Source: an uncultured delta proteobacterium
Lineage (GTDB): Bacteria; Desulfobacterota; Binatia; UBA9968
Direction: 5' to 3'
Length of the DNA: 64,000 nt
NCBI GenBank assembly: GCA_963745835.1
Contig: CAVUZH010000003.1
Coordinates: forward strand, 448,001 to 512,000
The notes beneath the pieces were generated by a model that made no database searches, was not told the origin of the DNA, and saw only the letters and a list, made by a program, of their open reading frames with translations. A program made the position numbers and the translations under genes. Shown piece by piece: positions 18,763 through 53,796 of this stretch; the stretch's first letter is position 1; each line of letters starts with the position of its first letter.

Positions 18763-18916
18763 CTAACAGCGTGCTGAAAAAAGCCTCTTGCAGGCGGCTC
18801 AAAAAAATCCAGAGGCGAGGCGCCGGAAAATCGACGAGCGCAGGCGTACTTACAGTACGTTTAGCGCGGCGATGAGCGGCAACGAAGCATATGGGTGTTT
18901 TTCAGCAGCCTGTTAG
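18763..18916. mobile_element. MITE family A, copy 2 (full length, about 150 bp)
   Basis: CTAACAGCGTGCTGAAAAA ... TTTTTCAGCAGCCTGTTAG; internal GCAGGCGGCTCAAAAA and GGCGTACTTACAGTACG shared with other copies. Confidence 0.85.
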
Positions 18917-20296
18917 GGATCGATGCGAAAGATCGCGACTTCCCCGGGTGTCAGGCGAATGTCAGATAGAGTATGGCCGTCGAATCCCGAATGCTTTGCA
19001 GAGCTCCCATCCAATTCATATCTCACCGCGGTTCTTCCCCGCGTTTTCAAGGTTGCGCTGACCGTTGGGCTTGCCGATTTGTCATAGATGAACAGGACCT
19101 GGCTGCCATCCGGCCTCTTGAAAAGATGCCGGTACAACTCTTTGGCTTCACCTGCCGACACCGCCACCGTCAACTCGCTTGGGGCGGTGGTAAGAGTGCC
19201 GACGTCTAAAAGATCGGTCAGCAGATCGACGGTGTAGAAGGCGAGCTTTTTGCCGCGGTCGGCTCGGGTGATTCCCAGATAATGATTTTTCTGGTCGCCG
19301 ATGGTCTCTTTGCCGAGCGGCAAATCTTTGATCTCATAGACGCCGATGTGTTCTACGTCAGGATCGGCAAGAAAGGTGCTGACTGCCCGCGCCCACCAGT
19401 TGGCTTGTTCCCGTTCGGTTTTATCCGGCGTAACGGAAAAACCCATCTCGTTTATCCAGATCGGTTCTGCCTCGCCTGAGAGTTTTATTGTCGATCACGA
19501 AAGACTCGCGGTAGTGGCGATCCAAGTAATTTTCGACATTGACGCCGCTCTCGGTCCAAGTTTCGGGATAGGCATGGAACGGAGTTATGTCGTAGTAACG
19601 AGCGTATCCGTCGCCGGCGATTGACTGAAGCCACTCGACATCAGGGAACACAAACCCGCCCAAAATGACTTGCGCTGCGGGGTTGGCGGCCCGGATCGCC
19701 AGCGCACCCTGGCGCAGCGTCTCTTTATATTCTTCGATGGAGCCATCCCACCACTGTGGCGAGTTTTGCTCGTTGTAGATTTCGTACGAAAGGACGTTGG
19801 GAAACTCACGCAATGCGGAGGCAAGATTGTAAACGAAATCGTGCCACGCTTGGTAATCGGCGGGAGGATTGTTCCAGTCGGCGCCATCGGCGCTGCCGGC
19901 GGTGCCCGCCCAACGCGGCGTGTAGCCGATGTAAGGCCGGAGCTTGATGCCATGCTGCGCCGCCAGCTTGACGAATTCTTTTAACCAGACGAAATCGTAC
20001 TGGCCGCGGACCGGCTCATAATCGTCCCAGCCGAAGCTGCATCGTAGCGTGTCGATTTCCAACTCGCGCATGAGTTGAAAATCCTTGGCGATCTCGTTGA
20101 GATCTTCGCCCTTGTCGTAATCTTCCAAAATAGCGAAAGAGACTTTCTTGCTGACGCTTTGCGCCGATCCCTGGTTGAGTTGAAGCGCGGGACTACAGGA
20201 CGAGATCCAGACGAGGAGTAGGAGCAGGGCAGAGTTGGCGAGCCTTCGATGCTTGCGGTCCGAGGTCTTGCGGATGGTGACCGAGCTAAATGTCAT
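18913..20296 (-). CDS. Clan GH-A glycoside hydrolase lipoprotein (GH5/GH39-like), one frameshift near 19470
   Basis: Lipobox-like WISSC; acid/base YEIYNEQN; HAYP; nucleophile IWINEMGF appears when the 19421-20296 and 18913-19446 frames are joined. Confidence 0.8.
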
Positions 20297-21471: not shown

Positions 21472-21668
21472 CTTGATTCACTCCTTTGCGGGTGTTGATT
21501 GAATGGCGCCAGCCTACGCCAGTCGAGATTCACGTTCAAGCGCGGCCTTCAGCATCGCGCAATATTTTGAGCTTCGCAGCATCGCCGAGTCGGTTCTTTC
21601 CCGCTGTCTAAACTCATCGCGACATTTGCGAAGCTCGATGGTCGAACAGCCGCGCAGGAATGAAACCA

Positions 21669-21825
21669 CTAGCAGGTTGCTGAAAAACTCTGGTTGCAGG
21701 CTGCTCAAAAAGATCCAGATGCGAGGCGCGCGATGAAATCGACGAGCTAAGGCGTACTTACAGTACGTTGCAGCGAGACGATTGAGTGCAACGAAGCATA
21801 TGGGTCTTTTTCAGGAGCCTGCTAG
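21669..21825. mobile_element. MITE family A, copy 3 (full length)
   Basis: CTAGCAGGTTGCTGAAAAA ... TTTTTCAGGAGCCTGCTAG with CTAG at both ends. Confidence 0.85.
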
Positions 21826-22051
21826 GCTGAAAACCCTTGGCATACGGACGTTCTTTGGATTAGAATCCCCTCGCCGATATTGTTTGCAGCCCGAGCCTGC
21901 CTTTCCGGATCTCCGAGCGCAAATTCCCGGCACATTAAATCCAATCACGTTTAAGAGAGCGACTCTGCATCGCCGAAAAGCTCAGAGGACGAACCCGCTA
22001 GCAGCGCTCGCGTGATCATAAGCGGTGGAGACCCAAGTAAGTTAAACAGAT

Positions 22052-23616
22052 ATGTCAAATAACGGTAATAACGATAAATCTCTCGAATCGTGGATCTGGG
22101 ATGCCGCGTGTTCGATCCGCGGCGCAAAGGATGCCCCGAAGTTCAAGGAATACATCCTGCCGCTGATCTTCGCCAAGCGGCTGTGCGATGTCTTCGACGA
22201 CGAGTTGAACCGCATCGCCAAAGAGGTCGGCTCGCGCGCCAAGGCGTTCAAGCTCGTCAAGCACGACAAGAAGCTCGTCCGCTTCTACCTGCCGCTCGAG
22301 CCGCAGAATCCCGACGATCCCGTCTGGTCAGTCATCCGCAAGCTCACCGACAAGATCGGCGAGCAGCTGACGACCTACCTGCGCGACATCGCCGATGCCA
22401 ACCCGCTGCTCAAGGGAATCATCGACCGAGTGGACTTCAACGCCACGACCCACGGCCAGCGCGATATCGACGACGACCGCTCTCAGCAATCTGATCGAGC
22501 GGATCAGCGAGAAGCGCCTGGGTCTCAAGGACGTCGAGGCCGACATCATCGGCCGCAGCTACGAGTACCTCATCCGCAAGTTCGCCGAGGGCAGCGTCTC
22601 CAGCGCCGGCGAATTCTACACGCCCACGGAAGTCGGCCTGGTCATGGCGCGCATCATGGACCCCGAGCCGGGCATGAGAGTCTACGATCCCTGCTGCGGC
22701 TCGGCGGGACTGCTCATCGAGTGCGAGTTGGTGCTGCGACGAAAAGATGAACTGCGCTCGCGCAAGAAGTACGCGCCGCTCCAGCTCCACGGCCAGGAGT
22801 ACATCGCCGGAAACCTGGGCGATGGCCAACATGAACATGATCATCCACGACATGGAGGGCCAGATCGAGATCGGCGACACGTTCAAGAACCCGAAGTTCC
22901 GCAAGGGCAACCGCCTCCAGACCTTCGACCGCGTCGTCGCCAATCCGATGTGGAACCAGGACTGGTGCAAGGAAGACGACTACGACGCCGACGAGCTGGA
23001 CCGCTTTCCGAAGGGCGCGGGCTTTCCCGGCCGCAAGGCCGACTGGGGCTGGGCGCAGCATCATCCTCGCCTCGCTGAACGACGCAGGCCGGGCCGCGAT
23101 CGTGCTCGACACCGGCGCCGCCTCGCGCGGCTCCGGCAACGCCAACAAGAACAAGGAAAAAGACGTGCGCCAATGGTTCGTCGAGCAGGACCTGATCGAA
23201 GGCGTGATCTACCTGCCCGAAAATCTGTTCTACAACACCACCGCGCCGGGCATCATGCTGTTCCTGAACAAGGCCAAGCCGAAGGACCGCAAGGGCAAGC
23301 TTTTCCTGCTCAACGCCAGCCAGCGAGTTCGACAAAGGCGACCCGAAGAACTATCATCTCCGACGACGCCATCGCAGCGAATCGCCGAGACGTTCAAAGC
23401 GTGGCAGGAAGAGGAGAAATTCGCCGCATCGTCACGCGCGAGGAGATCGCGAAGAAGGATTACAACATCTCGCCCAGCCGCTACATCCACACCGGCGAAG
23501 CGGACGAGTACCGGCCGATCGCGGAGATTGTGGAGGAGTTGGATGAGCTCGAAGAAGAGGCATCCGAGGTTAGCGCCGCACTTCGTCGTATCTTACATAG
23601 CCTACACGCGAGCTAA
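22052..23616 (+). CDS. hsdM: Type I restriction-modification methyltransferase subunit (several frameshifts)
   Basis: [46 protein letters not shown] (motif I), VVANPMW (motif IV), [18 protein letters not shown], spread over the 22052, 22395, 22747 and 23102 frames. Confidence 0.9.
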
Positions 23617-24898
23617 ATGGAAAACGGTTTGGATATTGCTGAAGGCTGGCAACGACGGCCACTCCGAGAGATTGGAGACGTTGTTACAGGTCGCACTCCC
23701 AGCACCAGCCGAACTGATATTTTATGGCGGGGACTACAACTTAGTCTCACCCGCGGATTTGAATGGTAACAAATACGTAGGCTCCGCCCATCGACGCCTA
23801 ACGAGAGCTGGCTTTGAGCAATGCCGCGCGTTGCCAAGGGACGCTGTCCTCGTAGGCTGCATCGGAAACGTGGGAAAGCTCGGGATGGTTGCTGACGAAT
23901 ATACCGCATCCAATCAGCAGATAAACGCGATTGTCTGTTCTTCCGAGTACGATCCGCATTTCATATACTATCGCCTTTACAAGGATCGAGATCGTTTGGA
24001 AAAGGCCGCCGTTAAGACCACTGTTCCAATCCTAAATAAGACTAACTTCGAGAGCTTTGAGGTAGACGTTCCATGTCTGGCGGACCAGCGAAAGATTGCG
24101 GCGGTGTTGGGGCTGGTGCAACGGGCGATCGAGCAGCAGGAGCGGCTGATCGCGCTGACCGCGGAACTGAAAAAGGCGCTTCTCCACAAACTCTTCACCG
24201 AAGGCCTCCGCGGCGAACCACAAAAACAAACCGAAATCGGCCCCGTGCCGGAGAGTTGGGAGGTGGCCGAGCTAGGAAAGCTTGTCAACCTCTTCGGCGG
24301 CTATGCGTTCAGGTCAGAAGATTCCGTACCGATCTCGAATACTCAGCTAGTGAGGATGGGCAACCTCTATCAGAATAAGCTCGATCTGACGCGAAGTCCT
24401 ATTTTTTACCCGGATGATTTTACCCAGCAGTACGCTCGTTTCGTCCTAAAGCAGGGAGATCTAATCATGTCGCTGACGGGGACGAGTGGGAAAGAAGACT
24501 ACGGTTTTACGGTTGAAATAAAACACGTTCCCAAAACTCTCTTGCTTAACCAGCGCGTTGCGAGGGTCGACATTACCTGCAGTAAACTGGTTAAAGATTT
24601 CCTTTTTTATTTTTTGTTGTCTCGAAAGTTTCTCAATCAGCTGTATCAAACTGCTAAGGGTATGAAACAAGCCAATCTCTCAACGTATGCTATGAAGGAA
24701 TTGAAAGTTCCTGTTCCCTCCGTACGTGAACAGAAAAACATCGCAGATTATTTCAGAGCGATTGATCAGAGGAATGACATTCATCAAAGACGAGTAGATA
24801 TGCTACAGGATCTCTTCCGTACCTTGTTGCACCAACTGATGATGGCGCAGATTCGGGTCCACGATCTAAACCTTTCAGAGTTGGAGTCAGACCTATGA
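23617..24898 (+). CDS. hsdS: Type I RM specificity subunit (frameshift near 23718)
   Basis: ATG 23617 gives [16 protein letters not shown]...GRTPS; TRD1; central conserved QRKIA.VL...[11 protein letters not shown]...EIGPVPESW; TRD2; EQKNIA...FRTLLHQLM. Confidence 0.9.
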
Positions 24899-26346
24899 GC
24901 AACGAGGCGATTTCCGCCGAAACCCTCATCCGCGAATACACTCGCGAGCTCCATAACAAGAACACAGCCGTGTTCGCAGGCGCCGGCCTATCGATGAGTT
25001 CAGGTTACGTTGATTGGAGAGGGCTGCTCCGCGAAATCATCCGAGATCTTGGTCTCGATCCGGAGAAGGAGCACGACCTGGTTACTCTGGCTCAATACCA
25101 TTGCAATCGAGCCGGAGGCAATAAAACGCAACTTACTCAAGCTATTTTCAACTATTTTGCTACAACCAAAACGCCAAACCAAAATCATAGTATTTTGGCA
25201 CGTCTTCCAATTCATACTTACTGGACGACTAACTATGACAAATTGATTGAGAAGGCGCTAGAAGAAGCTAAAAAGGTGCCGGATGTAAAGTATACGCTGA
25301 AACAACTATCCGTAACACGACCAGATCGCGACGTCGTTGTTTTCAAGATGCACGGCGACGTTGATAACCCAGCAGACGCTATTATCTCCAAAGACGACTA
25401 CGAAGCTTATCCGATTAAAATGAGCGCCTTCGCCTCAGCGTTACGCGGCGATCTTGTCGAAAAGACTTTCCTTTTCTTGGTTTCAGTTTCACGGATCCAA
25501 ACATCGATTATATTCTCAGCCGGGTGCGAGTTCAGTACGAGCAACACCAACGCCAGCACTATTGCGTCCAAAAACGAGTATCGAGGATTAGGATGAATCC
25601 GATGAGGACTTTAACTATAGAGGTCTAAAACAAGACTATTTCATCCGAGACCTGAAGCGCTTTGGCATCTGCACTGTCTCGTTGACGAGTATTCGGAAAT
25701 CACTGCGCTCCTTGAAAGGATCGCAGCAACCTATAGGCGTTCGTCCATTTTTCTTTCTGGCGCCGCTGAGGACTACGCAAGCTGGACTCGTGAAGACGCC
25801 GAGGCGTTTTTGCACAAGCTGAGCTATCAACTCGCCTCAAAGAAAAACCGGATCATTACGGGCTTTGGGCTTGGCGGTGGAGGGCCTGTCATCAACGGCG
25901 CTCTGGCTTATCTGAACGATGCAGGAAAAACAATCGCTGACGAAGACATTATGATGCGGCCGTTCCCACAAGTCGCTACCGGCGGTAAAAGCCTTACTGA
26001 AGAGTGGACGCAGTATCGCAAGAGAATGATCGACTATGCGGGTATTGCGATCTTTATTTTTGGAAACAACCGTGACGTCAACGGGGACATTGTTCCATCG
26101 AATGGAATGAGAGAGGAATTTGATCTTTGCCTCGCCGCGCGAGTTCGCCCACTGCCTATTGGCGCAACGGGTTTCATGGCGGAGACGTTGTTCAATGAAG
26201 TGCTTAGCAATTTTGCAAAGGTCTATCCGAATGCGGATGGCGAATTTCGTCGTGAATTTGAAAGCCTGGGAGATAACTCAAAACGACCCGACGAACTTAT
26301 TACTATCGTACAGAAGCTAAGTGAGCGCCTGCAGAAAGGCGGATAA
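24895..26346 (+). CDS. thsA: Thoeris type I effector ThsA: SIR2 NADase plus STALD/SLOG sensor (frameshifts about 25480-25700)
   Basis: SIR2: FAGAGLS, WTTNYD, KMHGD, (shifted) [15 protein letters not shown]: [51 protein letters not shown] overlap with hsdS. Confidence 0.88.
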
Positions 26347-26348
26347 CA

Positions 26349-26922
26349 ATGGCCAAGAGAGTATATTTTGCATTTGACTATGAAGACGTGAGTGACTTTC
26401 GCGCTAACGTTGTGCGGAAACACAACTTTACGGGAGGTGTGTTGAGAAGGCGGGTTATTTCGACGCCTCCATTTGGGAAGAGGCTAAAAGAAAGACGCGG
26501 TTGCCTTGAAACGTTTGATCAACGCGGAACTGGAAAACACGTCTGTAACGGCGGTGCTTATTGGCGCCGGGACTTATGCTCGCCGTTGGGTACGCTATGA
26601 GATCGTCAACAGTATTGAGCGTGGAAATAAAGTCATCGGCATTCACATCAACAACATCCTGGATAAAAACCGGCAAGCAAAACCTCTCGGGCCAAATCCG
26701 TTCGATTATCTTGGTATGGAGATCAGTCAAAACGGCACGCGAGGCACGCCAAGGGTTTGGGATGGGACGCAATGGGTTTATTACCAGGATCTGGATGCAT
26801 TTGCGATTGTTCAGCAGCCTTTAGATAAACGAGGAAAGCGCTTTCAGCTGTCGCATTGGCTGCCGGTTTACGACTGGGTTACTAATGACGGTTACAACAA
26901 TTTCAGTAGCTGGGTCCAATAA
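26349..26922 (+). CDS. thsB: Thoeris TIR-like sensor ThsB1 (MTH538/DUF1863 type), frameshifts about 26440-26500
   Basis: KRVYFAFDYED..FRANVVR, (shifted) DASIWEEAK, TSVTAVLIG..T..RRWVRYEI (catalytic Glu), IGIHIN. Confidence 0.85.
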
Positions 26923-27487
26923 TGTCTCTGTTTCGTGAATCAGTGCACGTGAGAGCAAGGTGGCTGCGCACGTATCGCACCGCACCGACCCTCTTGAACG
27001 AACCATAACAAAAAGGTCGTGTTTCTGGACATGATACTTTTCTATCTCATGCCTACGATGATCGGGACCTCGTTATCGCCTGGCATTATTGATCCAAGAC
27101 CTTGGTTATTCAGTTTACATTGATTGGCGGGATCATTCGTCGCTTGATCGTAACCGTGTTACCTCGGCGACAGCGGAAAGGCTCCGCCATCGGATGAAGA
27201 CAAGTAAAAGTTTGTTCTATTCAACTAGTGAAAGCGCTAGTCAATCAAAATGGATGCCTTGGGAGCTAGGCTACAAAGATGGTCAGAATGACCGAGCTGC
27301 AATTCTTCCCGATTTCTCGTCAGTTAACCGATGCCTATAATGGACAGGAGTTTTTGGGCGTTTATCCTTATGTCAATCAGGACGCGGACAGACAAGGTAA
27401 ACAGCGACTTTGGATTCATAGAAGTCCGACTGTTATGTGGTTTTCGACAATTGGCTCGCTGGAAAAGAACCTTGGGAAAGAGGTTAA
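26922..27487 (+). CDS. thsB: Second Thoeris TIR protein ThsB2, several frameshifts
   Basis: TAATG overlap with ThsB1; DTFLSHAYDD, LGYSVYIDW, TAE.LR.RM..SKSL, SKWMPWELGY.DG (catalytic Glu), GQEFLGVYPY; stop TAA 27485-27487. Confidence 0.8.
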
Positions 27488-27633
27488 AGAGCTGCTGTCC
27501 CATGGAAACTGTCCGTTGGAACAAACGGTGACCGTGAACGAGCAACAGCTTGGCAGCCTATTTGACGGCTATTCCAACATAATTGCTTGAATAGAGGCCT
27601 TGTCTTCATAGAAAAGCAATCCGAGACCTAATA

Positions 27634-28718
27634 ATGTCCTTCGACCCAGACAAGCCTTACAACGACCTCCCGCTGCTTCCTCCGAAGGCGGAGCTTGAAA
27701 CCAAAGCGGTGCTGAGAAAGGCGATCGCGGCGAACAAGGCGCTGGCGGAGCTGAAGGGTGCGGGGGAGTTGATTCCGAACCAGGGTGTTTTGATCAACGC
27801 GATCGTTTTGCAGGAGGCGAAGCTGTCGTCGGAGATCGAGAACGTCGTGACGACGAATGACGAATTGTACCGAGCGTTTGCCGACGCGGGACAGACTACC
27901 GACCTACAGACTAAAGAGGTTTTACACTATTCGGAAGCGCTCTGGCATGGCTACGAGCTGCTCAAGAATAAGAAACGACCGCTGACCACCAACTTGTTCA
28001 TCGAGTTGTTCCAGATCGTCAAGCAGACGAGCGAGGGTATTCGGAAAGGCGGCGGAACCAAGCTGGCGAATCCGGCGACGAAAAGAATCATTTACAGCAC
28101 CGCCCGAAGGGGGAAAATATCCTGCGCGATAAGCTGGCTAATCTGGAGAAGTTCATCTATTCGGAGGACGACTGGACCGCTGATTAAGCTTGCGGTGCTG
28201 CATTATCAGTTCGAAGCGATTCACCCGTTTAGCGACGGCAACGGACGGACAGGGCGAATCATCAATATTCTTACCTGCTCGACCGCGGCTTGCTCGATAC
28301 TCCGGTGTTGTATCTGAGCCGGTACATTATCGAGAACAAGGACGGCTACTACCGGGCGCTGAGAAAGGTCACGGAAACCGGTGCGTGGGAACCCTGGGTT
28401 CTTTACATGCTGGAAGGGGTGGAACAAACGGCACGATGGACCCGGGTCGAGTCCGTGGCGATCAAGGATCTGATGAACAAGACCGCCGAGATAGTCAGGA
28501 AGAGGGCGCCAAAGATCTATTCAAAAGATCTTGTCGAGGTCGTCTTTCACCAGCCCTACAGCAAGATCAAGTTCCTGGAGGAGATGGGGATCGGCAACCG
28601 GCAGACCGCTTCGGCTTATTTGAGGGAGTTAGAAAAAATCGGCGTGCTTCGGGGCGTGAAAAAGGGCCGGGAAATTTACTATCTGAACGGCAAGTTTTTG
28701 GATTTGCTAGCGAAGTAG
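27634..28718 (+). CDS. fic: SoFic-type (class II) Fic AMPylase with C-terminal wHTH, frameshifts about 28100-28280
   Basis: PYNDLPLLPP, ALAELKG, inhibitory SSEIEN helix, canonical HPFSDGNGRTGR, LYLSRYII, RQTASAYLREL..IGVL. Confidence 0.9.
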
Positions 28719-28736
28719 GACAAAGGGCCGGTAGGG

Positions 28737-29050
28737 CATATGTTCGCGAAACGAACATGTACCAGGGATATGTCGAAAAAAGCAGTTTTTTTCGACATAT
28801 CTCGAAAACATGTCGAAGGCGCGAACATGTGGGCGAGTGTGGCTGAACCTCATCTTCTTCACCGGATTTGCGCGCCACTTTATGTGGCGCGATTCCGGAA
28901 TCGCGCCATTATGACAAACCGGATGCGCGTGCCAGAAATTGACGTTGATATTGAGTTAGGTAACCGCACGGTCATAAACGGTAATCGGATATGTCCAAGA
29001 AAGCCGCTTTTTTGGACATATCCCGAGAACTTGTCCAAGCTTGGACATAT
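28737..29050. repeat. Stack of palindromic/inverted-repeat modules between fic and hsdR
   Basis: Two homologous units of about 65 bp (28766-28830, 28987-29050), each a long hairpin; perfect 24-bp palindrome at 28885-28908; perfect 16-bp palindrome at 29032-29047. Confidence 0.85.
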
Positions 29051-29066
29051 CGATATAGCTTGACTG

Positions 29067-32005
29067 ATGGCCAATCCCACCGAGTACAAGACCGTTCAGG
29101 CCCGCATCCTGGCCTACGCGCAGGAGATCGGCTGGACGTATGTGCCGCGCGAGAGGCGGAGCGGCGGCGCGGGTTTGATCCTGACGGCGCCACGCCGGAA
29201 GAGCGGGCCCGCACGGCGTCTCTCTATTCTTCGGCGACCTGCTCCACGCCCAGGTTCGCGCCTTCAATCCGAAATACAAAGAAGCCGAGGGCGCGCTGGT
29301 CGGCGAGTTGCAGCGGCTCCACGCGGACATCTCCGGCAACCGCGATTTCCTGACCGCTCTGCGCAACCAGGGCAAGTTTTTCTCTGCGGAGGAGAACCGC
29401 GAGCTGGACCTGACGCTGATCGACTACGGCGACCTGGCTCGACCCGCGAAACGATTGGCGCAACGTCTACGAGGTGACCGAGGAGTTCTACGTCCACAAC
29501 GGCCGCTACGGCACGCGCGAGGATGTGGTCTTTCTCATCAACGGCATCCCGGTGCTGGTGATCGAGTGCAAGAACGCGACCAAGGACGAGGCGATCGCGC
29601 TCGGCGTCGATCAGATCCGCCGCTACCACGCGAGACGCCGGAAGTGATGGTGCCGCAGATGCTCTTCACCGCCACCGAGGCGATCGGCTTCGCCTACGGC
29701 GTGACCTGGAACATGGTCCGCCGCAACATCTTCAACTGGAAGCACGAGGAGAACGGCAACCTCGAAGCAAGGTCAAGAGCTTCTGCGCCGTGCCGCATCT
29801 GCTGCGCTTGCTGAAGGACTTCATCCTCTTTGCCGAGAAGGACGAGGAGCTGCAGAAGTTCATCCTGCGCCAGCACCAGACGGCGGCCGTGGAGAGGGTG
29901 GTGGCGCGCGCGCTGGACCCGAAGCGCGCGCGCGGGCTGGTCTGGCACACGCAGGGCAGCGGCAAGACCTACACGATGATCAAGGCCGCCGAGCTGCTGT
30001 TCAAGGCGCCGCAGGCGGAGAAGCCGACCGTCCTGGTGATGATCGACCGCAACGAGCTGGAAGACCAGATGCTCAGGAACCTGGCGGCGGTCGGGCTGGG
30101 CAACGTGGCGCACGCCGACCGCATCGCGGAGCTGAACAAGCTGCTCAAGGAGGACTACCGCGGCATCATCGTCACGATGATCCACAAGTTCCGCGACATG
30201 CCGGCGGACCTCAACACGCGGACGAACATCTTCGTGCTGATCGACGAGGCCCACCGCACGACCGGCGGCGACCTCGGCAACTACCTGATGGCCGGCCTGC
30301 CGAACGCGACGTTCATCGGCTTCACCGGCACGCCGGTGGACAAGACCGCCTACGGCAAGGGGACGTTCAAGACCTTCGGCGGCGAGGACGACAAGGGCTA
30401 CCTCCACAAGTATTCGATCCGCGAGAGCATCGAGGACGGCACGACGCTGCCGCTCTACTACAACCTCGCGCCCAACGAGATGCTCGTGCCGCACGAAGTG
30501 ATGGAGAAGGAGTTCTGGCTCTCGCCGAGACCGAGGGCATCGCCGACATCGAGGAGCTGAACAAGATCCTCGACCGGGCGGTGAACCTGAAGAACTTCCT
30601 CAAGGGCGAGGAGCGGGTCGACAAGGTGGCGCGGTACGTGGCCGAGCACTACGTCGAGAACGTCGAGCCGCTGGGCTACAAGGCGTTTCTGGTGGCCGTG
30701 GACCGCGAGGCGTGCGCCCTCTACAAGGAGGCGCTCGACGAGTACCTGCCGCCGGAGTATCTCGGAGGTCGTCTACACCGGCAACAACAACGACCCGCCG
30801 CAGCTGAAGAAGTGGCACCTCGACGAGAAGAAGGAGAAGCAGATCCGCAAGGACTTCGCCAAGGTCGGCGAAGACCCGAAGATCCTGATCGTCACCGAGA
30901 AGCTGCTGACCGGCTTCGACGCGCCGATCCTCTACGCGATGTATCTCGACAAGCCGATGCGCGACCACACGCTGCTGCAGGCGATCGCGCGGGTGAACCG
31001 GCCCTACGAGAACGAGCGGGAGGAGATGGTCAAGCCGCACGGCTTCGTGCTCGACTTCGTCGGCATCTTCGACAAGCTGGAGAAGGCGCTGGCGTTCGAC
31101 AGCGACGAGATCAACGCGATCGTCAAGGACCTCGGGCTGCTCAAGCAGCTGTTCAAGGCCAAGATGGAGAGCAAGGCGCCGGAGTATCTGGCGCTCGTCA
31201 CGCAGGACTTCAACGACAAGGACGTGGACAACCTGATCGAGCACTTCCGCGACAAGGAGCGGCGCAAGGAGTTCTTCAAGGAGTACAAGGAAATCGAGAT
31301 GCTCTACGAGATCATCTCGCCGGACGCGTTCCTGCGGCCGTTCATCGACGACTACGCGACCCTGTCGTCGATCTACGCCGTGGTCCGAAAGGCCTACGCA
31401 AAGAAGGTGTACGTCGACAAGGCGTTCCAGCGGAAGACCAACGAGCTGGTGCAGAAGCACATCGGCACCACGGTCATCGAGCAGTGCGACAAATTCGTGA
31501 AGCTCGATCGCGCCGCCATCGAGACGATCAAAAAGAGCGAGGAAGGGGAGGCGGTCAAGGTCATCAATCTCATCAAGTCGATCGAGAGAACGGCGGAGGA
31601 GAACAGCGACGATCCCTTCCTCGTCGCCCTGGCGGAGCGGGCGAGGGCGGTGCAGGAGAGCTTCGAGGACCGGCAAAGCAGCACGGCAGAAGCGCTGGCC
31701 GAGCTGCTTAAGGAAATCGAGAGGAACGAGGAGCGCAAGAAAACAGACGGCGAAGGGCCTGGACGCCATGACCTACTTCGTCCTGTGCAAGCTCACCGAC
31801 GACGGCATCCCGAACCCTGAGATCGCCAGCAGGAAAGTGCGCGGGCGTTCGCCAAGTATACCAACTGGCGGTGCAGCGAGGCTGAGCTGCGCGAGGTGCG
31901 CAAGACAGGTGACTTTCGCGCATCATCGCCGAGGAGGAAGACCTCGAAAGGTGACAGCAGCGGTCGAAGCCTTGTTCACTCTTCTGCACAAGGCTCCGGC
32001 CATGA
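29067..32005 (+). CDS. hsdR: Type I RM restriction subunit (many frameshifts)
   Basis: Nuclease [16 protein letters not shown], Walker [41 protein letters not shown] across successive frames. Confidence 0.9.
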
Positions 32006-36449: not shown

Positions 36450-36796
36450 TCAACAGATTCAAACGATGCAGATATACCGCGGCCCTACAAAATTCCCGCG
36501 TATTGCCTGTGATCGAGAATCTTCGGTTCGCTGATCGGCCTTGCGGGAGGTCAGGATGCCTCTGTCAATTTTCGGTTCACAAGCCGAGTTTCAAATGGAA
36601 GCTCAACTGGGATATTATCCGATTAGCGCTTTTCTAAGGCGGATAAGTGTGAACCAAAAAATTTTGGCGGAAAGCCGATCATTCGCGGATGCTGTTTGGC
36701 CGTCGAGCATATCTTAGGGATGCTCGCCGGGGGGGATAACATTGAAAGAATCCTGCAAGCTTGCTTCGTCTACGCCGACATCAATCGGAGGGAACC

Positions 36797-37021
36797 ATGA
36801 GCATCGAAAAAGCAGTGTTGGAAAAGCTTCTGAAACTGCCCCCAGACAAGCAAAAGAAAGTTCTCGATTTTGTCGAGACTTTAGAAAAGAGCGCCGGCGC
36901 AACGCGTCAACGCCGAAGTTTGAAGGGATTGTGGTCGGATCTAGGGGTGGAAGTATCGTCGGAAGATATCGCCGAGGCTCGGCGTGAGATGTGGGGAGGA
37001 TTTCCCCGTGAGGATGTTTGA
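36797..37021 (+). CDS. DUF2281-like antitoxin
   Basis: LPPDKQKKVLDFVE...RRSLKGLW...EDIAEARREMW; GGAGG RBS; directly precedes the PIN toxin. Confidence 0.75.
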   Translation: MSIEKAVLEKLLKLPPDKQKKVLDFVETLEKSAGATRQRRSLKGLWSDLGVEVSSEDIAEARREMWGGFPREDV

Positions 37022-37423
37022 TTGGCGGCTTTAGTTGTCGATACCCATGCGGCTGTTTGGTATCTGCTGAATTCAACCCGCCTGTCGTCCGTCGCGCAGC
37101 GCGCGATGGATGATGCTGTGGACGCTGGAGACCCAGTGTATCTGTCCGCCATCTCGCTCGTGGAAATTGTATATCTCGTCGAAAAGGGGAGGCTCCCGAC
37201 CGAAGTCATCGAGCGATTGATCACTGCTCTCTCTGATCCAGACGCTGGATTTACCGTAGTTCCACTTGATGAACGAGCAGCGTGGGCCGTGCAGCGGATT
37301 TCTCGCGATACGGTTCCCGATATGCCTGATCGAATCATTGCAGCAACTGCCCTGAGTTTAGGACTCCCGCTAGCTACTCGTGACTCCGCAATTGCCACCG
37401 TCGGTATAACGACCATCTGGTAA
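37022..37423 (+). CDS. vapC: PIN-domain VapC toxin
   Basis: VVDTHA.VW, SAISLVEI, DMPDRIIAATA, LATRD. Confidence 0.9.
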   Translation: MAALVVDTHAAVWYLLNSTRLSSVAQRAMDDAVDAGDPVYLSAISLVEIVYLVEKGRLPTEVIERLITALSDPDAGFTVVPLDERAAWAVQRISRDTVPDMPDRIIAATALSLGLPLATRDSAIATVGITTIW

Positions 37424-37473: not shown

Positions 37474-37713
37474 ATGAGATTTAAAGAGTTCCAACGAGTA
37501 GCATTGGCTAAGGATATCCCGGAGGAGAAACTTCGTCGGGGTGATTTAGCGACAATTGTGGGTATACACCCAAGAAACGGTGGAGAGATAGGTTATTCTA
37601 TCGAAGTTTTCAACGCGATCGGCGAGACCATAGCCGTCACGACCGTTCCCGAGTCAGTTCTCGAGGAGCTCACCGCGAACGATGTTCTTCACAAGCGTTC
37701 TCTGGCTGGCTGA
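37474..37713 (+). CDS. DUF4926 family small protein
   Basis: VAL.KDIPE..L.RGD.ATIV...GYSIEVFNA.GET.AV. Confidence 0.75.
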   Translation: MRFKEFQRVALAKDIPEEKLRRGDLATIVGIHPRNGGEIGYSIEVFNAIGETIAVTTVPESVLEELTANDVLHKRSLAG

Positions 37714-37893
37714 GTACATTGAAGACATCAAGCCGTAAAGTCAGCTCGACATTTTCTGGTCTCAGACTAAACGTCGAAGATCGGATAATCTACCTGATCT
37801 CGATGTCCTCAATTTCTCGAAGACGTGCGGGCCATCGAACATTTACGCGAATCATTCAGGACACGCCGTGTGTATTAAGTGTCCGGAGGGCTT

Positions 37894-38904
37894 ATGCGAA
37901 ATGAGCGTGCGAAACTGCAGATCCTAATCGGCGTTTGCGTGTGTCTATTTCTGATCTGTACGAATGCGCTGATCTCGGAAGCCGCGGTCCCGCCCAATCA
38001 ACTGATGATCACGTTCGGCAGCCTCAGCGAAAGGGAAACCGCGCTTTTCGTTGCTCGAGATTATGGAATTTTTGCCAAGCATGGCCTGGACGTGAAACTG
38101 GTTCACGTGCGCAACGGCGCCGTCGCGCTTTCGGCCTTGGCTAGTGGAGATGCTCAATTTTATCTAGGCGCCGCCACCGGTTCTACTCTTGGTGCCATCG
38201 CCGGTGGTCTGGACGCGGTGTTCGTTACCAGTTTGATCCATAAACTGGAAGGCACGTTCGTCGTCAATCCGTCCATCAAATCCCCAGCCGAGTTGAGAGG
38301 CAAAACCGTCGGTGTCACGAGCATCGGCGGCGGCGTCTGGATGCGCTCGATGCTGACCTTCGAGCATTGGGGCTTGGAGCCGCAGAAGGACAAAATACAT
38401 TTGCGGGTGGTGGGGGACGAATCATTACTGGCTCAGGCGATGCCGAACGGCATCATCGACGGCTCTTATTTCAACTACACCTTTGCTTCCGTGCTAGAGC
38501 GTCAGGGCTTCCGTGTGCTCGCCGATCTCGCCAAGCTCAACATCCCTTATCAGAACACGGCGCTCTTGGCGCAGCGTCGATATCTCAACGCTGCTCCCGA
38601 GACGACCGAGAGATTATTGAGAGCTGTGTCCGATGCCCTGATCTTCGTCCTGGAGCCCAAAAACAAAGAGTTGGTGCTTAAGAGCCTATCCAAAGGACTG
38701 CGTTTGCCGCGCCCGGAGGACGCGCTCGGCGGTTACGACCGGCTTGCGAATCTGTACGAGCGGCGCATCTATCCCAACGTCGACGGAATTCGTTCGACGA
38801 TCCGGTTCCTCGGACCTGGCAATGAAAAGATCCGCGCTCTCAAGGCGGAGAACCTGGTGGACGATAGATTCGTAAAGAAGTTGGAACAGGAAGGCCGTTT
38901 TTGA
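37894..38904 (+). CDS. ABC transporter substrate-binding protein, SsuA/NMT1-like
   Basis: GGAGG RBS before ATG 37894; signal peptide; GIFAKHGLDV, LRGKTVGV, YPNVDGIR, LVDDRFVKKL. Confidence 0.9.
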   Translation: MRNERAKLQILIGVCVCLFLICTNALISEAAVPPNQLMITFGSLSERETALFVARDYGIFAKHGLDVKLVHVRNGAVALSALASGDAQFYLGAATGSTLGAIAGGLDAVFVTSLIHKLEGTFVVNPSIKSPAELRGKTVGVTSIGGGVWMRSMLTFEHWGLEPQKDKIHLRVVGDESLLAQAMPNGIIDGSYFNYTFASVLERQGFRVLADLAKLNIPYQNTALLAQRRYLNAAPETTERLLRAVSDALIFVLEPKNKELVLKSLSKGLRLPRPEDALGGYDRLANLYERRIYPNVDGIRSTIRFLGPGNEKIRALKAENLVDDRFVKKLEQEGRF

Positions 38905-38923
38905 CTCAGGTGCAACTAAAAAG

Positions 38924-39118
38924 TTGACACAACGTTACCTTATCGGATACGGTTTGCCCGACAGACGGGGGTATGGAGCGAGTCCGCTTCCTGAGTTAAT
39001 GCTTGAGACTCTGGAATGCGAGTCCCATCGGGATCTACAAGTAATATCGATTTCTCAGTGACCAACCCCCTGAAGCAAATTCCAATCATTTGCTCCGAGC
39101 AAGCTCGAGGAGACGCGC
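38924..39118 (+). promoter_or_regulatory. Putative promoter and structured 5' leader of the ATPase-cyclase gene
   Basis: TTGACA (38924-29)-18 nt-TACGGT; nested stems GGGGGT/ACCCCC, GGAGCG/CGCTTC, CTGAG/CTCAG, GACTC/GAGTC; hairpin next to the GAGGA RBS. Confidence 0.45.
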
Positions 39119-41167
39119 ATGCGATCGTGGACCGTGGATGCCGACGACATCCGGGTCGCCGAAGACTTCGACGAGGCTCTGCTGCACCGCACCCCCGAGA
39201 TCGACAACTTCCTGAGCCTAGACCGCGATGACAAGTTCATCGTCATAGGGACGAAGGGATTCGGCAAGACACTGCTGCTTAAGGCCAAGCGCATCCTGTA
39301 CCAGCGCCGGGGAGGGACGGCATGTCTTCCCACCGGCAATCTCCTCGACAAGCTGATCGGCGACAAGATTTTCGGCAAGGAGGCTCTCGCCTTCTTTTCG
39401 GCGTCGTCGCTTCCATGGGCCAAGGTGTGGCTCACTGCCATCGCGGTGACCGTTCTCAAACATCTCCGCCAGACCGAGGGACTCAAGGTCAACCCGAGGC
39501 TGACCCGCCTGATCACCGACGAACAGCTGCACGGCGTCATCGATCATTTCGTGCGGCTCCTGGATTTTCCACCGAGCGACCTTCAACGCAGCGCGAGTGA
39601 CACCGACGGTCACCTGGCTCCGCGCCTGCGAGCGGTTAACACGTCGGTGACGATCTTCCTCGACGGCGTCGACGAGTATTTCAACAAGCATATCGAAAGC
39701 GTCCGGAACCGCCCAAGCGTGGCGGGTGAGCTTTCGCCAGACGTGTGGCACTTCGCCCAGCTTGGGCTTGTCGAGGTGGCCTACCAGCTTCGGCGGATCA
39801 ACCATCGCCTCAAGGTCTTCGCGGCCGTAAGGAAGGAGGCGTATGCGCGCCTCCAGACAACCGTCATGGGCCAGCAGTATCGCGGCAGCGCCATCGACAT
39901 CGTCTATCCGATCGAGAGCCTGCGCGAGATCTTCATCAACAACGTTCGGCTTGAGAAGCCCGATCGGATGATTCGTCCCGAGCGGCTACGTACCAACCCC
40001 GTGGAGGCTTTTCTCGGCCGAACATCGATCACGGATCTCTACACCGGTCTTCAGGAAGATGCGTTCGAGTATCTGTGTCGGCACACATTACTCCGGCCGC
40101 GTGATTTGATGACCATCGGTGAGCGGCTGGCCACACTCCGGCCCGAGGAGCGGGGGAATGAATACCGACTGAAGGAGGCGGTGAACCAAGCCGCAACTGA
40201 AATTGCCCAGGAGTACCTGGTCGAGATTGCGCCGTATGTTGCGGGATTGGATCTCGAGCATGTCCTCCGCCGACTTCCCGGGCACGTGTTGACCCGCGAT
40301 GAGCTCGAGGAGCTTTTTCGAACGCACAATGCCTCGAGCGGCGCGCTCGAGGCGCAGGACGTCTTCTCTGCGCTTTATCAGGTGGGACTCCTGGGTCACG
40401 TACATCATGACTGGGTGCGTGGAGAGTGGGTTCAGCGCTTCCTTCGACCGGGCGAAGGCACGCTTCAACCAGACGGCGTACTCCCTGCGGCGGAACACTA
40501 TGTTGTCCACCCGGTTCTCTCCGAAGTGATCGGCCGATTCAATCCGTTATATCTCCAACGGATCGATCGAGTGAATATCGTCGGACACGGACTGCCGTGG
40601 CGCGCGACGCCGAGCGTCGATCGAACCGTCGCGAGCGGCATGCTCTTTGTTCTTGCCGGCGACGTTCACGGATTCGGCGGACTCATGCGCGCCGGCGTGG
40701 ACGCGCCTGTCCGTCAGGCGCTTGAGGAGGCGGTGAGAAAATGGGCTCAGGGCGCAGTGTGCGCTGAGACTAGCGCCGGTGACGCGGTGTTCATCGTCCA
40801 CGATGATCCGGTCGAGTTGGCCCGAGCCGGCCGTCACATCATCGACGAGGTGTATCGGGCTCCGGGCCAACCTCGCCTGCGGATCGCACTGCACTATGGC
40901 GAAGTGCTGACCCGTCGGCGCGAGGGTGACGGGGCCGTCATCGTTGTGGGCGGAGAGGCCGTGCTCTGCGCGGCGCGCGTCGAACCGCACGTGCAACCCG
41001 GACAGATCTGGATGACCGAGGAATTCCGCGAGCAACTTGCCCGGCAGCCCTCGTTGTGGCGGACCACCCCAGCGACCGGCCCGGGCGGAGACGAGCGCTT
41101 CAACGTGAAGAAGGAGGGGAACACAGAACCGGACCTCTGGCTCCGACTTTATCGGCTCGAGTTTTGA
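39119..41167 (+). CDS. P-loop ATPase (Sll1717-like) fused to a C-terminal class III nucleotidyl cyclase domain
   Basis: Walker A GTKGFGKT, Walker B IFLDGVDE, RPRD motif, LY.VGLLG wHTH-like segment; cyclase AGDVHGF, AGDAV, RIALHYGEV, GEAV..AARVE, PGQIW.TEEF. Confidence 0.85.
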   Translation: MRSWTVDADDIRVAEDFDEALLHRTPEIDNFLSLDRDDKFIVIGTKGFGKTLLLKAKRILYQRRGGTACLPTGNLLDKLIGDKIFGKEALAFFSASSLPWAKVWLTAIAVTVLKHLRQTEGLKVNPRLTRLITDEQLHGVIDHFVRLLDFPPSDLQRSASDTDGHLAPRLRAVNTSVTIFLDGVDEYFNKHIESVRNRPSVAGELSPDVWHFAQLGLVEVAYQLRRINHRLKVFAAVRKEAYARLQTTVMGQQYRGSAIDIVYPIESLREIFINNVRLEKPDRMIRPERLRTNPVEAFLGRTSITDLYTGLQEDAFEYLCRHTLLRPRDLMTIGERLATLRPEERGNEYRLKEAVNQAATEIAQEYLVEIAPYVAGLDLEHVLRRLPGHVLTRDELEELFRTHNASSGALEAQDVFSALYQVGLLGHVHHDWVRGEWVQRFLRPGEGTLQPDGVLPAAEHYVVHPVLSEVIGRFNPLYLQRIDRVNIVGHGLPWRATPSVDRTVASGMLFVLAGDVHGFGGLMRAGVDAPVRQALEEAVRKWAQGAVCAETSAGDAVFIVHDDPVELARAGRHIIDEVYRAPGQPRLRIALHYGEVLTRRREGDGAVIVVGGEAVLCAARVEPHVQPGQIWMTEEFREQLARQPSLWRTTPATGPGGDERFNVKKEGNTEPDLWLRLYRLEF

Positions 41168-41686
41168 CCGACCGCCGGACCAGACCGGAATCACGTGTGC
41201 TTGACTCGCAGAACCCGTTCGGTTCCACGCAACCTAGGAATCCAACCCGCAAGTATCCTCGAAGCTCGAAGGCAAACAGCGCTATCCGTTGGCAAGATAT
41301 TATTTAACGGCGTAGGACGTTTTTCTACCGTTATTCGGAGTCTGTAGTCTGATGCTTGGGTGCTCAAGGGGCTGGCACATGAACATCAGCGGCACAGCCA
41401 AGCGATTCGATTTTACCCGTGCCGTTACGTTGACAGAAAGACGATGTGGTGGCGGCAGCTTACCGAAACGCAGGCAGCGGATTTGGCTTCAAGGTGGTGA
41501 AGTTTTCTGAGCAGCAGGGAGGAAGAGATCTGTGTAGTTGGGCAGTGTGGTCTTGTAAATGCGAACGATGTCGATTCGTACCGCGCACTAAGCCCATCGT
41601 CGACGTTCCGTGCTGAGTGGTTTTTCAAGAGACAAAAATCTCGCTATAGTTTTCTAAGTCGCAAGACGATCGGATGGAGTAAATCT

Positions 41687-41914
41687 ATGGCTGACCGTAT
41701 TTCAAAGCTGCCCCGCGGTAAAAAAATCCCGCCCATCGATGTTGTCCGCGCCAGATTACGCAATCACGTCGAGGTTGTCCTAGCGTCCAATAACGAGCCA
41801 CTAATCCGGATGGTTGAGCGGTTTTTTACCGAAACGATCGACCGGCTAATCCAAAAGCGGCCCAAAGGCGAGGTCGTTCCGATAAAGCAAAAGACTCCGA
41901 AGACTGATAAGTAA
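41687..41914 (+). CDS. Small basic hypothetical protein (75 aa)
   Basis: GGAG RBS, ATG start, amphipathic helices; no family recognised. Confidence 0.5.
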   Translation: MADRISKLPRGKKIPPIDVVRARLRNHVEVVLASNNEPLIRMVERFFTETIDRLIQKRPKGEVVPIKQKTPKTDK

Positions 41915-42968: not shown

Positions 42969-43054
42969 CAGGCTGCTGAAAAAGACCCATATGCTTCGTT
43001 ACGCTCAAATCGCCTCTCGGGTCTTTTTGAACAGCCTGCAACCAAAGTTTTTCA
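42965..43054. mobile_element. MITE family A, copy 4 (short variant, right end truncated)
   Basis: CTAACAGGCTGCTGAAAAAGACCCATATGCTTCGTT...TTTTTGAACAGCCTGCAACCA.AGTTTTTCA. Confidence 0.8.
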
Positions 43055-43535
43055 CCAGAGAGCGCACCATGCGATTACCTTCTTTGGTGATATGCCCATG
43101 GCGTTCGGTCTCCGCGCTCTGACGCACCCGCGGCGCCAACCCAAAGTAGCTGGCCAACTTCTTAGCATTAGAAAATCGAGCAATCTCGCCAATCCAGCAG
43201 CTCATCGCCACCGCACTGACCGCTCCCACTCCCGGGATCGTCATCAGCCGCTTAGCCGAGCCATCTTCAAGAGCGATCTTCATCAACTCTTTGTCCAGTC
43301 CTCCATCTGCCGATTGACAAACCCCAAAAGCTCCACATCTTCTCCCACAATCCTCGGAGCATAGCCGCTGAGATCCTCGGCTCCCGAGACTTGGGGTTGG
43401 GCCCGCTGAAGCTTGGCTTGGGGATCGATGTTTCGCTTGGCGTAAACCGCACGCAGTTCGTTGATCACAGCGGTTCGTTGACGCACCAGGCGCGCCCGGT
43501 GGGTCAGAAGCTCGCGAATATGGCGTTGTTTTGAG
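43055..43535 (-). pseudogene. IS110 family transposase internal fragment
   Basis: RQRTAVINELRAV (one frame), then LMTIPGVG..SA...IGEIARF.NAKKLASYFGL.P..RQS...GHITKEGN; both ends missing. Confidence 0.85.
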
Positions 43536-43569
43536 GAGGGACAAGTTCAGCAACCTACTAGGAGAATGG

Positions 43570-53643: not shown

Positions 53644-53796
53644 TGGCAGGCCGCTGAAAAAGACCCATATGCTTCGTTCCGCTCAATCGATTCGCTGCAA
53701 CGTACTGGGAGTACGCCTTCGCTCATCGACTTTTCGCGCGCCTCGCATCTGAATCTTTTTGAGCAGCCTGCAACCAGAGTTTTCAGCTCACTGCCA
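53644..53796. mobile_element. MITE family A, copy 5 (full length)
   Basis: TGGCAGGCCGCTGAAAAAGACCCATATGCTTCGTT...CGTACTGGGAGTACG...TTTTTGAGCAGCCTGCAACCAGAGTTTTCAGC..ACTGCCA. Confidence 0.85.

Follow-up and report, generated by a model that had tools for sequence, protein, structure and literature searches.

Class III nucleotidyl cyclases and switch ATPases are both well known. Among the cyclases, the mycobacterial enzymes Rv1900c (1ybt/1ybu) and Rv1264 (1y10/1y11) are regulated by an alpha/beta-hydrolase-like or a pH-sensing domain, and Rv1900c is an active, if slow, adenylyl cyclase; in the Rv0386-type proteins, also mycobacterial, an N-terminal cyclase is followed by an ATPase and by a C-terminal helix-turn-helix (HTH) domain. 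The Pycsar and Pucsar enzymes (7r65, 8jsz, 8jsf) display the class III fold and two catalytic Asp together with non-canonical specificity residues, which in Pycsar enzymes differ strongly from clade to clade, and Pycsar cyclases are encoded beside an effector that is a TIR protein binding cyclic nucleoside monophosphates (cNMP) or a transmembrane protein (PMC11224242). A 2026 preprint also presents cNMP cyclases fused to STAND NTPases (NACHT, AP-ATPase) as its predicted immune clade 1 (10.64898/2026.08.12.744502). The analysis reported here concerns a different combination, an ATPase-cyclase fusion encoded at 39119..41167 of a 64,000-nucleotide stretch of DNA, in the following the window, from an uncultured delta proteobacterium (Desulfobacterota; Binatia; UBA9968; assembly GCA_963745835.1, contig CAVUZH010000003.1, positions 448,001 to 512,000 of the forward strand).

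In this protein an Sll1717-type P-loop ATPase precedes a class III cyclase domain. As in the cyclase-STAND fusions of the preprint, cyclase and switch NTPase lie on one polypeptide; however, the partner is an Sll1717-type ATPase instead of NACHT or AP-ATPase, the cyclase is C-terminal and not N-terminal, and no TPR or HTH output follows. Pycsar enzymes have the same fold and the same Asp pair, but they lack the ATPase fusion, and the effector gene that accompanies them has no equivalent among the immediate neighbours here. The order found in Rv0386-type proteins is not matched either, since the ATPase comes before the cyclase and no C-terminal HTH is present. No printed or experimental description was found of an Sll1717-type ATPase placed before a cyclase with neither sensor nor partner, and the word "cyclase" does not occur in the main text of a 2026 survey of STAND proteins (PMC13581612).

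The reading that best accounts for the data, with a probability of roughly 55%, is that of a class III cyclase gated by an ATP switch, signalling in trans and carried on a single-gene accessory cassette moving between soil phyla. Single-gene movement, strong purifying selection and an invariant Leu in the active site are together unusual for a housekeeping cyclase or for a fast-evolving defence gene. If active, such a protein would add to what is known of the chemistry or regulation of cyclic-nucleotide signalling in bacteria, and it would provide a clean one-gene model of ATP-switch control over a cyclase.

Domain architecture

The gene is an intact open reading frame (ORF) on the forward strand, with an ATG start and no internal stops, coding for 682 residues; the genome of 7.28 Mb holds a single copy. 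An ATPase module, a linker of about 33 residues and a cyclase domain account for the whole length of the protein. The motifs named in the original prediction, which was made from the DNA alone, are all present in the translation. The C-terminal position that it gave to the cyclase also stands, while the start of the domain moves from about nucleotide 40640 to nucleotide 40628, near residue 504. The features of the gene are the following, in window coordinates:

39119..41167 (stop codon included), + strand: whole gene, ATPase-cyclase fusion; intact ORF and full-length homologues
39119..40528, + strand: residues 1-470, Sll1717-family P-loop switch ATPase (conserved N-terminal segment, NTPase core, helical domain, winged helix); NCBIfam match and structural alignments
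39248..39271, + strand: Walker A GTKGFGKT, residues 44-51; invariant positions
39653..39676, + strand: Walker B IFLDGVDE, residues 179-186; D182 and D185 invariant, E186 nearly so
40094..40105, + strand: RPRD motif, residues 326-329, in the helical domain; invariant in 28 sequences
40253..40528, + strand: winged-helix-like segment, residues ~379-470; secondary structure of the model and structural alignments
40628..41164, + strand: divergent class III cyclase homology domain, residues 504-682; AlphaFold2 model, Foldseek, VIA and profile
40661..40663, + strand: D515, first metal-binding Asp (AGDVHGF); conservation and alignment to solved cyclases
40781..40783, + strand: D555, second metal-binding Asp (TSAGDAV); conservation and alignment to solved cyclases
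40964..40978, + strand: L616-C-A-A-R620 (VLCAAR); Leu at the position of the transition-state Asn, Arg kept
41111..41113, + strand: K665 in the C-terminal hairpin; nearly invariant

An alignment of 28 full-length relatives, with identity down to 26%, leaves K46, G47, G49, K50, T51, D182, D185, R326, P327, R328 and D329 invariant in the ATPase part, together with D515, G554, D555, R588, G594 and R620 in the cyclase part. Since they are invariant over such a divergence, the motifs are selected features and not chance strings.

ATPase module

The NCBIfam model NF047389 (P-loop ATPase, Sll1717 family) matches residues 7-468 over positions 5-451 of its 454, with 86 bits and E 3e-24, thus passing the curated cut-off of 75 bits; this match and the fold matches of the C-terminal part agree with the predicted fusion of a stand-alone Sll1717-family ATPase to a class III cyclase-fold domain. 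Pfam searches on the whole protein gave no significant family (best DUF7159, E 0.046; ORC-CDC6-like, E 0.26), and the STAND Pfam models did not match it. Among the 79 close relatives of the window's protein, on which all the residue counts given here are based, K50 of Walker A is kept in 78 and T51 in all; D182, D185 and E186 of Walker B are each kept in 79 of 79, as are R326, R328 and D329 of the RPRD motif, which may represent a sensor-2-like arginine motif.

The full-length AlphaFold2 model (pLDDT 87.4) was aligned with VIA to about 48,000 PDB representatives. For residues 1 to ~475 the Z scores are 11.5 with the archaeal AAA+ ATPase SSO1545 (2fna, 321 residues aligned), 11.2 with Cdc6/Orc1 (2qby), 10.6 with PAB2304 (2qen), 11.3 and 10.2 with plant NLRs (9qlv, 9h2l) and 10.2 with the SIR2-STAND protein Avs5 (9jap). 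In the predicted structure, these alignments show an NTPase core, a helical domain and a winged helix, in the arrangement common to ORC/Cdc6 and STAND switches. With Z scores of 10.1-11.5 over 235-334 residues, it is only this three-part layout that can be said with certainty to be common to SSO1545, PAB2304, Cdc6/Orc1, NLRs and Avs5; in contrast to ORC/Cdc6 and STAND proteins, with which sequence similarity is negligible, the present protein has no DNA-replication context and no repeat sensor. The winged-helix-like segment of the original prediction is recognisable in the model as helices 393-407 and 415-421 followed by a beta-hairpin at 425-440, and the alignments with Cdc6/Orc1 and SSO1545 extend to residue ~472-476. 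Foldseek with the full-length model returned cyclase matches only, the ATPase part being matched only in the VIA alignment.

Members of the Sll1717 family occur sporadically, above the cut-off in 15 of the 301 genomes sampled from the window's phylum. They have Walker A, Walker B and an RPRD-type motif in common, and most of those sampled are 477-565 aa long with no additional Pfam domain, the C-terminal cyclase fusion forming a separate tight clade. In a scan of 13 members, an N-terminal TIR_2 domain was found in one and no extra Pfam domain in the others; the only plasmid matches were a SEFIR-annotated Butyrivibrio protein (residues 4-494, E 6e-21, confined to the ATPase part) and a hypothetical protein. 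The original prediction spoke of frequent fusions between Sll1717-like ATPases and conflict effectors; this is too strong, and "sometimes" fits better than "often".

A 701-aa family member (L099) was considered as a hidden cyclase fusion and rejected, as the ATPase part alone aligns, over residues 163-430 and including "YTLYRPRDL". Two Sll1717-family ATPases of the phylum may be mentioned: one, at 701-3028 of L109, carries an N-terminal TIR_2 domain, and one, at 3161-4432 of L103, adjoins the gene for a type I restriction-modification (R-M) specificity subunit.

Cyclase domain and active site

The AlphaFold2 model of residues 504-682, built on a 58-row alignment, has a pLDDT of 91.9. Foldseek matches it to the cyclase domain of Rv1900c with E 2.4e-11, and returned 188 PDB matches at E<=0.001, all of those listed being class III cyclases. 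The best structural matches in VIA are Rv1264 (Z 20.7, root-mean-square deviation (rmsd) 2.2 A over 157 residues) and Rv1900c (Z 20.2, rmsd 2.0 A over 160). By group, the Z scores are 18-21 for ordinary adenylyl and guanylyl cyclases, 14.5-15.3 for Pycsar pyrimidine cyclases, 12.6 for the Pseudomonas aeruginosa ATP-binding protein 6yii and ~10.8 for GGDEF domains. The domain thus adopts the class III cyclase fold, as had been proposed; the comparison with Pycsar drawn at the same time holds for the altered specificity residues, but the fold is nearer to ordinary cyclases than to Pycsar.

Sequence comparisons reach the same families through profiles: the subfamily profile matches solved cyclases with E values from 5e-13 to 5e-07, among them 3mr7 (5.1e-13), Rv1900c (8e-10), a guanylyl cyclase (4.9e-09) and Rv1264 (1.8e-08). 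With the C-terminal domain alone, phmmer against PDB sequences gave a single match, Rv1264, at E 0.21. Residues 470-682 as query brought up only 231 proteins (E<=0.001) from 1.84 billion cluster representatives; judged by sequence, the C-terminal domain is a small, divergent subfamily. Three of 42 representatives of the domain pass the Guanylate_cyc model (PF00211), two match it below threshold and 27 have no Pfam match. Their N-terminal partners include pentapeptide repeats (four), TPR-S (two), and REC, MCP signalling and SMC-like AAA modules (one each); a place C-terminal to such modules is what would be expected of a signalling output domain. The prediction of a two-copy complex of the cyclase domain had a score of 0.00 and a mark of 0.42, values that have no bearing either way on dimerisation.

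As in Rv1900c and Rv1264, the two metal-binding Asp, the RxGxxxG strand and the Arg of the xxAxR motif are present. D515, which corresponds to the D of FxDIxGF, and D555 align with both metal-binding Asp of solved cyclases; R588 and G594 align to the conserved RxGxxxG strand, and R620 to the Arg of VNxAxR. All 79 close relatives have D515, D555, R588, G594, G612, L616, R620 and E622, so that the metal Asp pair is retained as predicted. K665, which is presumably the equivalent of the phosphate-binding Lys of canonical cyclases, is kept in 78 and is nearly invariant in wider alignments.

The replacement of the Lys/Glu specificity residue and of the transition-state Asn, also part of the original prediction, is equally clear. 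T551, four residues before D555, occupies the canonical Lys/Glu position, which was taken from the profile alignment to solved cyclases and which holds K in Rv1264 and N in Rv1900c; the close relatives have T (51), V (11), I (8), A (4) or S (3). At position 609, which from its spacing to the Asn we take to be the site of the base-specifying Asp, 49 relatives have I and 30 have V, the residue of the window protein. Neither of the base-specifying pairs, the Lys/Asp that selects ATP or the Glu/Cys or Ser that selects GTP, is found at these two positions. At the Asn position Leu is found here and Arg or Leu in the wider subfamily, whose consensus "lRtaAR" aligns with VNVAAR, VNTASR and the VHIGAR of Rv1900c. 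As far as these alignments can tell, the metal, phosphate and transition-state Arg functions are strictly kept, whereas the ribose-orienting Asn and the base-reading residues are now small or hydrophobic.

Rv1900c, deposited as an adenylyl cyclase, is similarly non-canonical, with His in place of the Asn and Asn in place of the Lys by alignment; neither Rv1900c nor Rv1264, however, has the Leu at the Asn position and the Thr, Val or Ile at the Lys position that characterise the present family. A non-canonical pocket alone need not mean inactivity, yet it leaves the substrate unpredictable, and the pattern of conserved residues suggests that the divergent cyclase domain is probably active.

Distribution and selection

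The architecture is common: soil metagenomes contain more than 1000 homologues, and 282 relatives were confirmed in species-representative genomes. A word-indexed search gave 1018 homologues at E<=0.001, the best 120 of which are 673-711 aa long and 72-93% identical and come mainly from soil metagenomes; many homologues carry the JGI automatic label "class 3 adenylate cyclase". In the species-representative genomes the best 80 relatives are 64-79% identical. Their hosts are Rokubacteria/Methylomirabilota, Vicinamibacterales, many Burkholderiales (Rhizobacter, Caldimonas, Rubrivivax, Ideonella), Casimicrobiaceae and Acetobacteraceae, with one bin each of Chloroflexia, Dormibacterota and Nitrosotalea; these last few assignments may reflect binning errors in metagenome-assembled genomes (MAGs).

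In a quick maximum-likelihood tree, a branch of 0.98 sets a tight core clade of 79 sequences apart from the remaining family. The window protein nests in a Rokubacteria/Methylomirabilota/Vicinamibacterales subclade (SH-aLRT 97-99), and the Acetobacteraceae sequences are nested within Casimicrobiaceae. According to this phylogeny the gene tree conflicts with taxonomy, and the gene spreads between soil phyla. Closer to the window, the gene is present in two of seven other genomes of the same genus (96-99% identity) and, with this query, was not found in 33 further relatives save for one weak match to the C-terminal domain. A collection of 50,697 phage records gave no match and 72,556 plasmids no full-length match; IMG/VR contains one distant relative (32% identity), beside HigB/HigA, a sub-threshold relaxase match and a phage lysozyme, on a mobile-element-like contig.

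Purifying selection acts on both parts of the protein. In 14 pairs (Nei-Gojobori) dN/dS is 0.059-0.168 for the whole gene, 0.068-0.136 for the ATPase and 0.027-0.246 for the cyclase. The most conserved stretch in the core clade is formed by the first 40 residues, with a mean column identity of 0.92 and 19 of 40 positions invariant, and the least conserved parts are the linker and the winged helix.

Two loci of the family show irregular copies. In an Acetobacteraceae MAG (L084, 5348-5644) a fragment corresponding to residues 1-99, with 73% identity, lies 2.4 kb upstream of a full-length gene and has the appearance of a leftover second copy. L019 carries the gene in two frames (residues 1-407 and 443-682), where a frameshift or an assembly error is possible.

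A probable single-gene insertion

In two genomes of the same genus (G005 and G006) the gene for a solute-binding protein, orthologous to window 37885-38919 with 90% identity, lies only 47-70 nt before the counterpart of the sequence that begins at window 41668. These genomes show the empty site, which identifies about 2.7 kb containing only this gene as an indel:

38925..41630 (+/- 15 nt), no strand: indel of ~2.7 kb, with this gene alone, flanked by non-coding DNA of ~195 nt (upstream) and ~460 nt (downstream); empty site in congeners

The G+C content is 0.60-0.63 in the gene and 0.50-0.56 on either side; this step, together with the tree, makes insertion from a high-G+C donor more likely than a deletion in the congeners. 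The comparison thus favours an accessory gene gained as a single-gene insertion. At the ends of the indel no terminal inverted repeats and no target-site duplication were found, but only short scattered repeats. Partial copies of host intergenic sequence lie at 41438-41452 and 41501-41516, their source preceding a 75-aa ORF at 41687, and the non-coding flanks have no similarity to the 80 related loci. The ~460 nt of non-coding DNA at window 41168-41630 arrived with the gene; another genome of the genus (G001) lacks ~228 nt of it (41320-41547).

Neighbouring genes

No conserved neighbour accompanies the gene. Flanking proteins that are related to each other recur in at most seven of the 80 loci, and a co-oriented neighbour is found upstream in 38 of 76 cases and downstream in 24 of 72. 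A Pfam scan (E<=1e-5) of all 148 immediate neighbours in these loci returned mostly metabolic and transport proteins; effector domains (cNMP-binding, TIR or similar) were absent from them save for three syntenic Caldimonas Sir2 genes, and no cNMP-binding or TIR effector neighbours the gene in the window. The earlier remark that no effector gene adjoins it also holds for these loci, none of the 148 neighbours carrying a cNMP-binding or TIR domain. Those neighbours that recur track host taxonomy: luciferase-like monooxygenases (seven, Rokubacteria/Methylomirabilota), cupins (five), thioesterases (four) and Sir2 (three, Caldimonas).

The luciferase-like monooxygenase gene lies directly beside the ATPase-cyclase gene in two arrangements, upstream in L010-L014 and downstream in L019 and L031, and shared ancestry or chance could account for it. 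According to the preprint, luciferase-like enzymes are rare candidate effectors in Pucsar loci (10.64898/2026.08.12.744502).

Proposed mode of action

The N-terminal 470 residues, an AAA+/STAND-like Sll1717 module, would bind and hydrolyse ATP. If the module works like ORC/Cdc6 and STAND proteins, two class III cyclase domains would then be paired, either through nucleotide-dependent assembly or because autoinhibition is released; they would form a two-metal active site at their interface and convert an NTP to a cyclic nucleotide and pyrophosphate. Because T551, V609 and L616 replace the base-recognising pair and the Asn, the substrate is unpredictable, and the enzyme may turn over slowly or only under tight control. 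Its product would reach receptors encoded at other loci and so act in trans, a step proposed because no partner gene travels with the ATPase-cyclase gene.

Several points weigh against this scheme. No receptor or effector is linked to the gene in 80 loci, and action in trans is therefore an argument from absence. Leu in place of Asn in 79 of 79 relatives, with non-canonical base residues, means that catalysis could be weak, altered or absent; moreover, PF00211 does not match the protein at E<=1 and no Pfam cyclase threshold is reached. The ATPase part resembles known structures only moderately (Z 10-11.5), at levels that do not separate an ORC/Cdc6-like from a STAND ancestry. No sensor domain (TPR, WD40, LRR) is recognisable and the protein has no repeat Pfam match. 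Finally, the literature search found no paper on "Sll1717" and none describing this architecture.

Alternative explanations

Among the alternatives, the one that survives best is a single-gene, STAND-like sensor against phages or mobile elements, whose ATPase module would recognise a cue from the invader and whose cyclase would make an alarm nucleotide for an unlinked effector or drain the NTP pool, leading to growth arrest; it is possible, although unlikely. The surroundings of the gene in the window are suggestive in this respect, as they include a toxin-antitoxin (TA) pair, a transposase fragment and a decayed defence island:

22052-30557: decayed defence island (PADLOC), ending ~7.4 kb upstream of the gene
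22052-22747: type I R-M methylase fragment (PADLOC)
23102-24895: type I R-M specificity subunit (PADLOC)
24895-25593 and 25810-26343: Thoeris ThsA in two pieces, model positions 5-192 and 304-477 of 478 (PADLOC)
26506-26919 and 27279-27587: ThsB/TIR-like ORFs (PADLOC)
27634-28314 and 28290-28715: SoFic, split (PADLOC)
29790-30557: type I R-M restriction endonuclease (REase) fragment (PADLOC)
36761-37021: DUF2281 antitoxin-like ORF, abutting the following gene or overlapping it by one base
37022-37423: PIN (VapC-like) toxin
37474-37713: DUF4926 ORF
43005-43553, - strand: IS110-family transposase fragment, 182 aa, Transposase_20 only, 1.8 kb downstream

The proximity of a TA cluster noted in the original prediction is real, the DUF2281/PIN pair and the DUF4926 ORF lying 1.4-1.7 kb upstream. 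The stretch upstream of 37885 has no counterpart beside the orthologous binding-protein gene in G006, where it is not syntenic, and the IS110 fragment is missing at the matching site of the same genome, which has a copy of a ~155-nt repeat instead. The gene thus lies in a variable part of this window; this is one locus, and the pattern is not repeated elsewhere. PADLOC matched no defence model to the protein itself (best E 0.027, to an unrelated candidate model). The flanks were scanned for the first 127 of the 316 ORFs of 26 fully flanked loci, that is 10 loci and part of an eleventh (L058), and eight of the 127 matched at E<=1e-10; only L015 is convincing, with PDC-S01 (199 bits) and a type I REase tail, the remaining matches being generic domains.

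An immune sensor would also fit the occurrence of immune-type domains on some Sll1717-family ATPases (TIR_2 in one of 13; SEFIR on the plasmid protein), the fusion of two distant cyclase-domain relatives to TPR-S, the patchy distribution with inter-phylum transfer and single-gene indel, the 32%-identity homologue adjoining HigB/HigA, and the immune cyclase-STAND clade predicted in the preprint. On the other hand, only one of 10 scanned loci has convincing defence genes, the immediate neighbours are mostly metabolic, no repeat-type sensor domain is present, and the gene is absent from phage records and, at full length, from plasmids, the distant IMG/VR relative being the only one there. Its evolution is slow as well, with dN/dS about 0.1 and 64-79% identity across phyla, whereas a faster evolution of immune than of physiological cyclases is reported in the preprint (10.64898/2026.08.12.744502). 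A defence role was called unproven at the outset and is still so; the defence framing itself is weakened by the single convincing neighbourhood and the slow evolution.

A related proposal is that of a self-contained mobile sentinel of immunity or stress, in which a sensor-less Sll1717 switch would respond to a conserved intracellular cue and make a non-canonical nucleotide, or burn the NTP pool, with receptors already existing in the recipients. A conserved cue would explain the unusual sequence conservation across phyla, and the ability of the gene to move alone would follow if its output feeds into receptors present in any recipient genome; the proposal is nevertheless doubtful.

That the domain is a pseudo-cyclase, keeping the fold and binding nucleotide or dimerising without cyclising, as a regulatory or assembly domain comparable to 6yii, is improbable. 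It would agree with the Leu found at the Asn position throughout, with the missing base-specifying residues and PF00211 match, and with the presence of 6yii, a solved cyclase-like ATP-binding protein, among the structural matches. However, a scaffold would not need the metal Asp, R588, R620 and K665, which are invariant or nearly so over deep divergence; genuine cyclases are structurally closer (Z 18-21 against 12.6), and Rv1900c likewise does without the Asn and the Lys. This possibility, raised in the original prediction, thus becomes less likely, though it is not removed, given the invariance of the residues for metal, phosphate and transition state.

That the protein is an ordinary housekeeping enzyme, making cAMP or cGMP for the core signalling of the host, is very improbable: the JGI name, the closeness in structure to mycobacterial adenylyl cyclases, the purifying selection and the metabolic neighbours would suit it, but the gene was not found in five of seven other genomes of the genus nor in other genera of the family, two congeners have an empty site, the G+C content is foreign, the adenine-specifying Lys/Asp pair is absent and the tree is at odds with taxonomy.

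Expression hints and repeats

Scans of 38800-41800 gave two promoter-like sites against 1.0 expected, neither positioned for the gene, and one terminator-like site, within the ORF, against 2.6 expected. In four metatranscriptome libraries from four studies, contigs of 78-473 nt, 93-100% identical, match parts of the ORF and of the 5' flank. They lie on the ORF in all four soil or rhizosphere runs examined, and some span the start and stop codons; bins 41250-41531 have no RNA-library contigs in the four runs, which is no evidence of a transcript end. Since DNA carry-over into RNA libraries is possible, these contigs are at most a weak hint that the gene is transcribed.

The ~155-nt repeat mentioned above occurs in the window at 18772-18917, 21663-21827 and 53646-53794, with at least 40 copies in the genome at 83-93% identity. 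Its copies border rearrangement points relative to G006, and in appearance it resembles miniature inverted-repeat transposable elements (MITE) or repetitive extragenic palindromes (REP).

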